From: Octopus vulgaris
Lineage: Eukaryota
Length of the DNA stretch: 64,000 nucleotides
Assembly: GCA_951406725.2 (NCBI GenBank)
Contig: OX597814.1
Location: 90,954,001-91,018,000 of the forward strand
Direction of reading: 5' to 3'
Both the position numbers and the translations under genes were made by a program. Under the pieces are notes generated by a model that saw only the letters and a program-made list of their open reading frames with translations, was not told the DNA's origin and did not search any database. Of this stretch, positions 30,201 to 33,076 are shown piece after piece; position 1 is the stretch's first letter; every line of letters starts with the position of its first letter.

Positions 30201-30643
30201 TGTCAAACAGCCAAACTATTGGACTACATTTTTACATTTCCCTTGTCTCCAAAATAAAACAACTTAATAATTAAGTGCTTTTGTTCCAAGTAATTGATTA
30301 TATGACATTATTACCTCGCTAACGAGTTTACAATCTATTTGTGCTTCAAGTAGTGAAAATATATTATACGTTAGGGAAATCATCTTTCGAAATGAATAAA
30401 ATAATGTATGAGAGGAAAATCTAGGGGTGTACAAGTTTTCATATACATGAAAAATTTAAGTTGCAGTTTCACTCTGAATCTTTGGAAATCTCTAAGACTG
30501 TAAAAGAGAGTGAAGTAAGATATAATTGCCATAACAGGTTATTACATTTTCAAAACCAATTAGAAGTTAATGATTCGTTTTTATACGAGGTCGTTTACAT
30601 TATTTACATTTGACGGATATTTTTCCTCGTCCTGTTTGTTGTC

Positions 30644-30689
30644 AACACAAAGTTTCGGCTGATATACCCTCCAGCCTTCATCAGGTGTC
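30644..30689 (-). ncRNA. Minimal type-I hammerhead ribozyme motif (one substitution in stem III)
   Basis: gacac-CUGAUGA-a-ggcug(gaggguauau)cagcc-GAAA-cu-UU-guguu; stems I and II pair; sibling arms indicate an ancestral GAAA-CG-UU. Confidence 0.75.
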
Positions 30690-30865
30690 TTGGGGAAATT
30701 TCGAACTTGGGTTCTTATACCTAAGGTATTTTTCGATGTTGTTGTTGTTGTTGTTATTATTATTGTTATTATTATTATTATTATTATTATTATTATTATT
30801 ATTATTATTATTATTATTATTATTATTATTATTATTATTATTATTATTATTATTATTATTATTCA

Positions 30866-30942
30866 CGTCACTGCCTGGAATCGAACTCGGAATCTTGGGG
30901 TTAGCAGCCCGTTCCCTTAACCACTACGCAATATGCCCATGG
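30866..30942 (-). promoter_or_regulatory. tRNA-like head with Pol III A/B boxes
   Basis: Minus strand gggcatattgcgtagtggttaagggaacgggctgctaaccccaagattccgagttcgattccaggcag: A box tgcgtagtggt, B box gagttcgattcc, anticodon-like arm ggg-ctgctaa-ccc. Confidence 0.75.
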
Positions 30943-33076
30943 CGTATATAATAATATCGAAAAATACTTACTCCTGTAATAATTACGGACTAATGAAAGC
31001 TGCAGAGTATATCAGTTGAAATGTTGTGTTAACAACAAAGAAGATGAGGACAAATATCCGTCAAATGTAAAACATGTACATATTTCCTCATCTCTTAAAT
31101 ATAGAACTATGAGATCATTTGACTTGCTGGGAGAAAAAAAATTGAAACATGTCTAAAGTGTAAAAAAGACAGAGGTGGATTATTATTATCTATTTCTGTG
31201 CTGTAATGTTCATAGTGTGACAATACGGCTTCAGGTTTTTCTATGAAATCTCACTTTCTGATGGCGATCGAGCTACTATGCGTTTCACAAATATAAATAT
31301 AAATCGATTAATAAACGAGGATGCACTTCGAAATTGTAACCATAATCGTTTTTGAAGTTTAATGATTGAAATATTCTGCAACGAAACAATGCAGCAATGA
31401 TATCAAGGCATCCATTGTGTAAGATATTTTTGCAAAAGAAACGATAGGCTGTAGAAGGATATAAATGCATTAATGATGATAGTAGATGAGAGCCTCTCCA
31501 TTAATCTGGAACCCGAAATTCATAGGAGAATGATGTACGACGTAAGCTAGGAGTAAATCGTTATATTCTTTTTATTGCCTGACGAATATTTTACTGACTT
31601 GGCAATAAATATATTTTTTTGAATAGGTGTCATAACTATTTTTATTCTTCGATTTAAGCGAAAACATTGGTTTTATTTCAAAATTATTACCCATATTAAT
31701 GTCCAATATAATACGTGACAAATATTTTGTGACAAAATTATTGAACCATTTAACGTGTGCACAGAAAATATCCACGTAAAATAGTTTACGAGACAGAAAA
31801 TGAATATAACATACAAAGTTTTAAAAATTGTAAATGACAGTGAATTCATTTACTGAATTCTGAATAAATATGCCTATATATAAATATATATGTATGTATG
31901 TATGTATATATATATGTATATATATATATATATATAATTTATATATAATTTATATATAATTTATATATAAATTATAATTTAGAGTATCTAAGATATACCA
32001 ACACGCTGGAAATAGCAGCCAAAACGTGACGCTAAAACCACATTAAATGTTCATACAGAACAAGAGGAGAAGACAGACAAAATATACTCGCAAAAAAAAA
32101 AATTACTGGATAATTCCAGCTCCTGGAATTCTCGCTCTGCGTAAGAAATGCTTTGCCTCATCAGTGGAATATACACAGCACATAAATACAGATATATATA
32201 TATATATATATATATATATATATATATACAACATACGAATACTTATATATACGAACGTATACATACATATATATATATATATGCACGTATGCGCACGAAC
32301 AGTTTAAATTGCCCGCCTAAGTCTCCTCGTGCGATATGGTCTAAAATACCACCGCAGTGAATATAATGACGAAATAAATATATAACGATCTTATCTTTAT
32401 TTACACACACACATGCATGCATATATATTAATAATATATAGGAATGAAGAAAACTATAATATAATAATGAAAAAATATATTATATAGTGATGATACAATA
32501 AGCAGTGACAAAGAAATATATAAATACTATATAAATATGTAAATACTATAGATAAAAGCGGACGTAAACAATTACGAATGAATGACAAAATAAAAAAAGT
32601 ATAAAAGGATATATAACGAAATCTACGGATAAAAAATTTTTAAATGATAAAATAAAATAATCTTAATTTAAGAAGTAAATGTTAGAGCGTAATAATTACG
32701 AAAAAATATAACGTTAATAAATATCGTAAAACAAATGTAAAAATATATATGTTCAGTCTACCGTTGTATAACATGGTCATAATTCGAACTAATTTCAAAT
32801 TAACACCGCAAGGCTCAGCAAAAATATGTACTTTCCCACATACTTGATGCTTCTTTTAAACTATGGCTTAATAAGTATATTATCTTAATAGTAACAATAG
32901 TGCAGGAAATAAATAAGTACATTGTGGGGGCTTTACTTTCTTTTATTACCAACCTTTGTTCACACTCACCACACTAATATAACTCCCCACATCGAATGGT
33001 AAGTTAATTTAAACTAAAACGTTCATATTAAATAATAATAGTAGCAGCTTTACGTAAGAATTAAATTTATTTCTTT

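Follow-up and report, generated by a model that had tools for sequence, protein, structure and literature searches.

What kind of mobile element leaves a tRNA-like head and a hammerhead ribozyme in two divergent arms, and how does it move? The question is raised by a palindromic locus in Octopus vulgaris, within a stretch of 64,000 nucleotides (assembly GCA_951406725.2, contig OX597814.1, positions 90,954,001–91,018,000) that we call the window. A sequence-only reading had taken this locus for a Pol III-driven, ribozyme-bearing, SINE-like unit fused head to head, and had left it open whether the unit moves by Penelope-like element (PLE) retrotransposition or as a MITE. Among the checks it proposed were a count of palindromic versus solo arms, an inspection of termini and target-site duplications, and an Rfam search. 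We are almost certain that an autonomous PLE gave rise to the palindrome, through a short head-to-head insertion of its pLTR. The explanation as a whole, to which we give a probability of roughly 0.7, is that of an inverted-pair insertion of a PLE pLTR carrying a tRNA-Arg-derived segment, likely copied from a Pol III transcript that would start in that segment. Published work is cited here for particular passages of each source.

Anatomy of the palindrome

All parts described for the left arm (head with A and B boxes, (TAA)n and hammerhead) were located on the minus strand (Table 1). The extent first given, 30595–31110, places the locus correctly and widens to about 30584–31120 when the flanking duplication is included with the element. 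This duplication scores 5.5, below the cut-off of 7 applied to the family. The right arm does carry a decayed mirror of the hammerhead and tail, 83% identical to the left arm over 89 nt. Its head is deleted, as had been claimed, except for the 7 nt of the A-box region that open the arm. The tail of about 80 nt described after the left hammerhead is in fact that of the right arm; about 50 nt follow the hammerhead on the left, because an extension of about 30 nt is present on the right arm only. Junctions resembling the centre of this copy are also found at three other loci (L011, L027 and L220).

Table 1. Positions, within the window, of the features of the two palindromic copies
Feature	Position	Strand	Remarks
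Probable target-site duplication, left copy	30584–30596		10/13 identical to 31108–31120; score 5.5
Left arm, 3′ part, short tail-less end within 9-nt repeats	30594–30643	−	Aligned to reference-arm position 142/179
Minimal type I hammerhead motif	30644–30689	−	Sequence and family majority (125 arms)
Segment with PLE reading-frame start	30690–30735	−	Family ATG position 30718–30716 is ATA here
(AAT)n/(AAC)n microsatellite, head-to-body spacer	30736–30863	−
tRNA-Arg-like head	30866–30938	−	A box 30931–30921, B box 30886–30877; alignment to host tRNAs
Centre, CCATGG junction	30937–30946	+	Right arm opens with 7 nt of A-box region (30940–30946)
Right arm	30947–31078	+	Head deleted, short AT spacer, decayed hammerhead 30990–31030, core CTAATGA
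PLE tail extension, ~30 nt, right arm only	31079–31108	+	Aligned to reference position 179/179
Probable target-site duplication, right copy	31108–31120
Second palindromic copy, older subfamily	48966–49553		Tail on left arm

Both arms of the second palindrome belong to subfamily 2 (see below), and a search for a target duplication around it detected none. The pattern CTGATGA-N21-GAAA, with one mismatch allowed, matches the window six times against 1.5 expected, a number reached in none of 100 shuffles; three of the six matches are arms of the two palindromes.

Several neighbouring features were recorded. A PLE reverse transcriptase (RT) fragment at 21911–22648 (minus strand) is 54% identical to a PLE family with a 781-aa protein, and two decayed endonuclease-type fragments lie at 23426–23757 and 33107–33274, both on the minus strand. 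Inverted arms of 327 nt with 90% complementarity at 40474–41677 consist mostly of dinucleotide repeats. A different interspersed repeat adjoins (AAT)n at 58340–58690 and occurs inside the pair at L025 too.

The hammerhead motif

In the left arm, stem I is formed by 30689–30685 (GACAC) and 30648–30644 (GTGTT), the core CTGATGA occupies 30684–30678, and stem II (GGCTG, 10 nt, CAGCC) pairs 30676–30672 with 30661–30657; GAAA (30656–30653) is followed by CT, TT and the second strand of stem I. Cleavage is predicted after 30649. This arm has ACUU as stem III where the family has ACGU, GAAA-CG-TT being the majority sequence of 125 arms. The loopless, palindromic ACGU stem III that had been reconstructed from the window is thereby confirmed. 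With its core, the bulged base before stem II, G10.1–C11.1 and the palindromic 15.2–16.2, the majority sequence is a minimal type I (PLE-type) hammerhead as described in passages of PMC4209133, which we used as the standard.

Such a motif is predicted to need a dimer or a protein for cutting. The proposal that divergent transcripts of this locus might dimerise in trans fares less well: the promoter is missing from the right arm, whose core is broken (CTAATGA), and the left stem III is ACUU, so a trans-dimer is unlikely at this copy. No compensatory changes were found in the hammerhead stems; stems II and III are identical in the two subfamilies. The predicted fold of the arm RNA is not unusual (z −1.6).

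Other repeats with hammerhead motifs came to light. Three head-to-head repeats (L034:50–1105, L089:110–600 and L147:520–1130) carry long-stem-II hammerhead motifs, with no tRNA head seen. Another repeat family (L078, L097 and L162) has a short-stem motif with a CCGACGA core and adjoins dinucleotide microsatellites.

Copy number and forms of the family

Sixty evenly placed 10-kb stretches (600 kb of the 2.8-Gb genome) contained six insertions, which corresponds to about 28,000 copies genome-wide (95% range 10,000–61,000). This unbiased sample also provides the proposed count of palindromic versus solo arms: two insertions were inverted pairs, three were solo and one was a tandem. The leader or open reading frame (ORF) described below accompanied two of the six. 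Divergent pairs were present at 34 of 62, 9 of 20 and 16 of 29 loci of three best-hit sets (59 short pairs among 111 loci); the loci used for pairs, tails and 5′ ends were taken from top-40 and top-150 lists and are skewed to young, complete copies.

Arms diverge from the majority by 5.3% on average and by 16% at CpG sites. In the older subfamily 2 the hammerhead core is kept, as are stems II and III; it departs from the majority in loop II, at one stem I position (a mismatch) and by a 6-nt insertion upstream. Private variants common to both arms of a pair numbered 4 against 4.1 expected (39 pairs), a result that cannot separate one template from two. The second palindrome of the window alone shares seven, because both of its arms are of subfamily 2. 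Contigs of four sequencing runs, which we guess to be of RNA, contain the family and are uninformative on its ends, strand and level.

At L026, L028 and L029 the element body follows (AAT)n tracts that are joined to LINE-like ends, an arrangement that suggests truncation or recombination inside the microsatellite.

Palindromes as insertion products

Inspection of the termini and target sites separated PLE retrotransposition from movement as a MITE. In 54 of the 59 short pairs (31/34, 8/9 and 15/16 by set) a tail of about 30 nt is present on one arm only; both arms carry it in five, called by cut-off, and neither arm in none. Two of the search sets had been selected for a long arm; with a tail-less query (L001–L030) the tail was one-sided in 12 of 14 pairs. 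One arm has a precise long end, and the other ends about 30 nt earlier within 9-nt repeats. Duplications scoring at least 7 flank 40 of the 59 pairs (24/34, 7/9 and 9/16), compared with 3.0–4.6% of mismatched flanks. The best of them measure about 8–18 nt, with no single fixed size.

These are known marks of PLEs. According to passages of PMC8557442, an inverted 5′-truncated copy and a one-sided tail of 30–40 bp are hallmarks of the group; in vitro work on a PLE (passages of PMC11167929) equates the tail with the interval between two internal RT start sites and places the ORF start in the hammerhead. Minimal hammerheads 100–700 bp apart on opposite strands are described for Schistosoma in passages of PMC4209133. 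How PLEs make inverted repeats is called undefined in the cited passages of these papers. The octopus palindrome is this documented PLE insertion structure, which forms afresh every time the element inserts.

A palindrome formed by fusion of an independent SINE-like unit and moving as a MITE would be expected to be short, to have inverted arms and to reach many copies, all of which the family does. We nevertheless rejected this candidate, to which we attach next to no probability. Symmetric inverted ends, a fixed short duplication and a uniform length are not what was found: the two ends differ by the one-sided tail, the duplications vary in size, pair spans range from 243 to 1,346 nt with centres that differ from copy to copy, and solo and ORF-linked arms exist. 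As the head-to-head form arises anew with each insertion, the MITE option is closed.

A fusion involving the same tail was seen at L119 (7625–7653), where 29 nt of it stand head to head with a 5′-truncated copy of a different PLE family; this was the case at one of 30 loci of that other family.

The autonomous partner

A leader upstream of the head was first noticed in L005 and L115. Following it gave 30 loci, and it was only by this route that the true partner was found. The leader corresponds to the final codons of a frame in which a GIY-YIG-type pattern is visible, and many of the 30 loci extend upstream into one common frame ending there; L247 and L250 have it in common over more than 1.5 kb. 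On the other side, a 51-codon frame crossing the hammerhead runs past the tail into the PLE N-terminus (L288, L294, L304 and L314). The order in long copies is therefore RT frame, GIY-YIG-type end, stop, leader of about 25 nt, tRNA head, (AAT)n, ATG, hammerhead, tail and continuing frame. These copies have the shared ORF–head junction and are not chimeras lacking one. The repeat unit measures about 2.55–2.75 kb, and in L294 and L304 the ORF is flanked on both sides by body or tail, about 2.55 kb apart, an arrangement of direct pLTRs (a partial tandem) with hammerhead.

The RT domain is recognised by RVT_1 (E 5.5e-10 on L310 and 2.7e-6 on L316). It has 2,989 homologues at E ≤ 0.001 and is 28% identical over 429 aa to another PLE RT in the genome; a genome search with the RT part gave 150 scored matches. 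A GIY-YIG-type pattern is visible in translations, with no Pfam score for that end; PF01541 is annotated for 3 of the 120 homologues listed, and BLAST matches this end weakly to another family's endonuclease (E 0.067). Translations of L291 and L316 show, by inspection, the motifs given for the Penelope/Poseidon clade in passages of PMC8557442, and our clade assignment is from these motifs. The peptide pattern that spans the hammerhead also opens P0155, a relative at 55% identity. Every copy seen is decayed, and no open stretch exceeds 569 aa. A search with the 51-aa peptide gave 150 scored matches in open frames of at most 203 aa, and one protein search returned no match. Nine of 31 ORF-bearing loci gave an inverted pair, with a one-sided tail in eight and a duplication in six; the pairs picked by script at L288 and L304 are doubtful.

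Three other PLE families, obtained from endonuclease searches, were tried as partner and rejected for mismatch of pLTR and hammerhead: a young family with a 781-aa protein, an old family and a third one. The young family (L101–L107, L118–L120) has many intact 781-aa RT–GIY-YIG frames, pLTRs of about 510 nt, a second overlapping frame of 479 aa upstream and a U3–A8-type hammerhead variant.

The idea of a Pol III-driven SINE-like unit placed head to head is thus partly upheld: tRNA-type boxes and the head-to-head form are present, and the unit is not independent, being colinear with a PLE ORF on both sides. It is not a separate non-autonomous family with only a 3′ tail common to its partner, as a tRNA-derived SINE would be, because the whole unit, head included, belongs to the autonomous element.

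The first 38 or so residues of a predicted Octopus sinensis isoform (P0001, 368 aa) correspond to the frame of this PLE, after which the protein is cysteine-rich and membrane-type. This may be either an exonised copy or an annotation artefact.

The tRNA-derived head and the 5′ ends

The head was compared with 23 distinct host tRNA sequences (RF00005; 30 loci of 34 matches) and aligned best with tRNA-Arg(TCT) (z 8.6) and tRNA-Arg(TCG) (z 7.9). Other tRNAs score too (Ala 7.5), which leaves the tRNA origin clear and makes Arg the most plausible assignment. The Rfam check proposed earlier yielded no hammerhead or tRNA match for the window, four loci or two 80-nt stretches; neither motif scored even in the short stretches, and this library is uninformative here. 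ARAGORN found no tRNA in the whole window.

Most copies begin at the head. Among 77 arms containing its 3′ half, from loci chosen by body alone, 20 break inside the head and 57 reach +6; of the latter, 49 stop at −7 to +6, where the within-head rate predicts about five. The arms that continue into the leader comprise five found by script and three by eye (L005 second arm, L036 and L076). In subfamily 2, nine of 11 arms by script (eight by eye) stop at the head against 2.3 expected. The two arms of one pair are non-independent counts. Of 30 copies covering the ORF start, three run into the leader (L328, L344 and L348) and two stop at the head; the start lies at −2 to −5 of the head in L314, L327 and L334. 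RNA polymerase III would start near −6 of such a head. The pile-up points to a Pol III start at this position, a step that we consider reasonably probable. As most copies begin at the tRNA segment, the PLE likely makes its own SINE-like offspring.

The segment might instead be a passive passenger, an old SINE in the 3′ untranslated region of Pol II templates, with 5′ ends set by RT stalling or fold-back at a hairpin at −7 to +5. The hairpin coincides with the 5′-end peak. Among 16 leader-less arms with TGC at −7, the T that the source has at −8 is replaced by A in 14, as expected if a cDNA end had folded back on this hairpin. Since the junctions vary from locus to locus, they arise at insertion. 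Leader-bearing copies exist, and the Penelope promoter of D. virilis is LINE-like and internal according to passages of PMC2377424. The hairpin is weak, however (−1.4 kcal/mol for one copy's cDNA end), and the stop rate at the peak is about ten times the within-head rate. Moreover, both subfamilies retain intact A and B boxes, while the acceptor stem is not kept, and the source has no shared TTTT. We think a passive passenger unlikely and favour the Pol III start.

The absence of TTTT concerns the 2,447-nt majority sequence, in which 2.6–4.1 occurrences would be expected (P 0.012–0.051): 4.1 by base shuffling (P 0.012) and 2.6–3.4 by codon models of 593 aa (P 0.019–0.051). Long copies have 0.47 runs of four or more T per kb, any one site being shared by at most three of the 14–31 copies covering it; in the second set, one TTTT some 108 nt past the tail is common to six of 30 copies. 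Six control sets contain 1.0–7.4 TTTT per kb, with P 0.055 for one family, and the deficit is not significant on single copies. It is weak and amounts to a hint. Since the source has no TTTT over 2.4 kb, Pol III might transcribe the element in its entirety. The boldest version would be that this autonomous, protein-coding PLE has exchanged its Pol II promoter for a captured tRNA gene, with Pol III transcription end to end, a 2.4-kb frame purged of TTTT, and the same promoter in every 3′ pLTR yielding a SINE-like RNA that the protein of the PLE has copied tens of thousands of times. We regard this scenario as improbable.

A model of insertion

The following sequence of events would account for these structures. 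Pol III would start near −6 of the head and transcribe through the hammerhead and tail. The RT–endonuclease would cut both target strands about 10–15 bp apart, and cDNA synthesis would begin at two internal sites separated by about 30 nt, as has been shown in vitro with the anole PLE. The two cDNAs would be joined at their incomplete ends into a head-to-head pair, in many cases after fold-back of one of them at the short hairpin that lies at the 5′ end of the head. The template would be uncleaved RNA, because the copies span the hammerhead. Passages of PMC11167929 report the same for the anole PLE, whose insertion in vitro was unchanged by hammerhead mutations.

That last result also bears against a retrozyme-like cycle, in which tandem transcripts driven by the tRNA segment would be cleaved from hammerhead to hammerhead and the monomers or circles reverse-transcribed. 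Cycles of this kind have been proposed for PLEs and described for schistosome Sm-alpha (passages of PMC4209133 and PMC6765202, respectively), and tandem copies with leader do occur (L328, L344, L348 and L353). Tandems are present at only two of 62 loci, however, no arm of 34 pairs starts within 3 nt of the predicted cut (hit starts by inspection), and just two of 30 forward arms do so among the copies covering the ORF start. We judge the cycle very unlikely, and the copying of uncleaved RNA remains our preferred model. Assignment to the non-LTR retrozymes was likewise rejected on the rarity of tandems and the presence of A and B boxes.

Relation to known elements and implications

Passages on endonuclease-bearing PLEs of the Penelope/Poseidon type, the Penelope of D. 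virilis and the anole PAc (PMC8557442, PMC11167929 and PMC2377424), describe the same RT frame, which in octopus has a putative C-terminal GIY-YIG-type end, the hammerhead in the pLTR with a frame starting at it, and the inverted 5′-truncated partner with a one-sided tail of about 30 nt. To these the octopus pLTR adds a tRNA-derived A/B-box segment and (AAT)n, and most copies start there, whereas the promoter of Penelope is LINE-like (passages of PMC2377424). Sm-alpha and Sj-alpha resemble the octopus unit in being tRNA-related, with a hammerhead and reported Pol III transcription. They differ in depending on tandems, with the promoter at the 3′ end of the cleaved units and no partner ORF in the passages concerned (PMC2770079 and PMC6765202); in octopus the promoter-like head lies 5′ of a minimal hammerhead, the copies form inverted pairs and the partner ORF is colinear.

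A Pol III promoter derived from a small RNA is also found in the terminal repeats of the TRIMp3 elements Cassandra, Helenus and Ajax (passages of PMC10886601). These are non-autonomous LTR elements with PBS, PPT and duplications of 4–5 bp, whereas the octopus unit belongs, as a pLTR, to an autonomous PLE. Non-LTR retrozymes and MRC1-type PLEs are similarly short and derived from or dependent on PLEs (passages of bioRxiv 10.64898/2026.07.22.740005, PMC7761336 and PMC8557442); retrozymes form head-to-tail arrays and are said there to be promoter-less, while most octopus copies have A and B boxes and occur as inverted pairs or as solos.

The octopus SINEs OK, OR1 and OR2 come from the same animal group and are tRNA-derived. 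They were reportedly described by Ohshima and Okada in 1994, and OR is said to be of tRNA-Arg origin. OR2 is a CORE SINE according to passages of PMC4758252. The text and one supplement of a 2026 octopus repeat annotation (PMC13282606), in the parts consulted, do not contain the word 'hammerhead'. Full-text searches of the literature, which did not extend to Repbase, Dfam or the 1994 octopus SINE paper, returned no description of a tRNA-derived segment within a pLTR. The impression that the architecture was undescribed may hold for this segment alone. PLEs are already known for the palindrome, the tail and the hammerhead, and neither palindrome nor hammerhead is out of the ordinary for them.

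Octopus repeat annotations are likely to scatter these copies among SINE, MITE and Penelope labels. Brought together, they form a natural collection of insertions, numbering tens of thousands, in which two defined RT start sites can be studied along with fold-back junctions and target duplications, and could be used to test how PLEs make inverted repeats. If the tRNA segment works as a Pol III promoter, the family would show how a PLE can give rise directly to a SINE-like family whose partner is identified.
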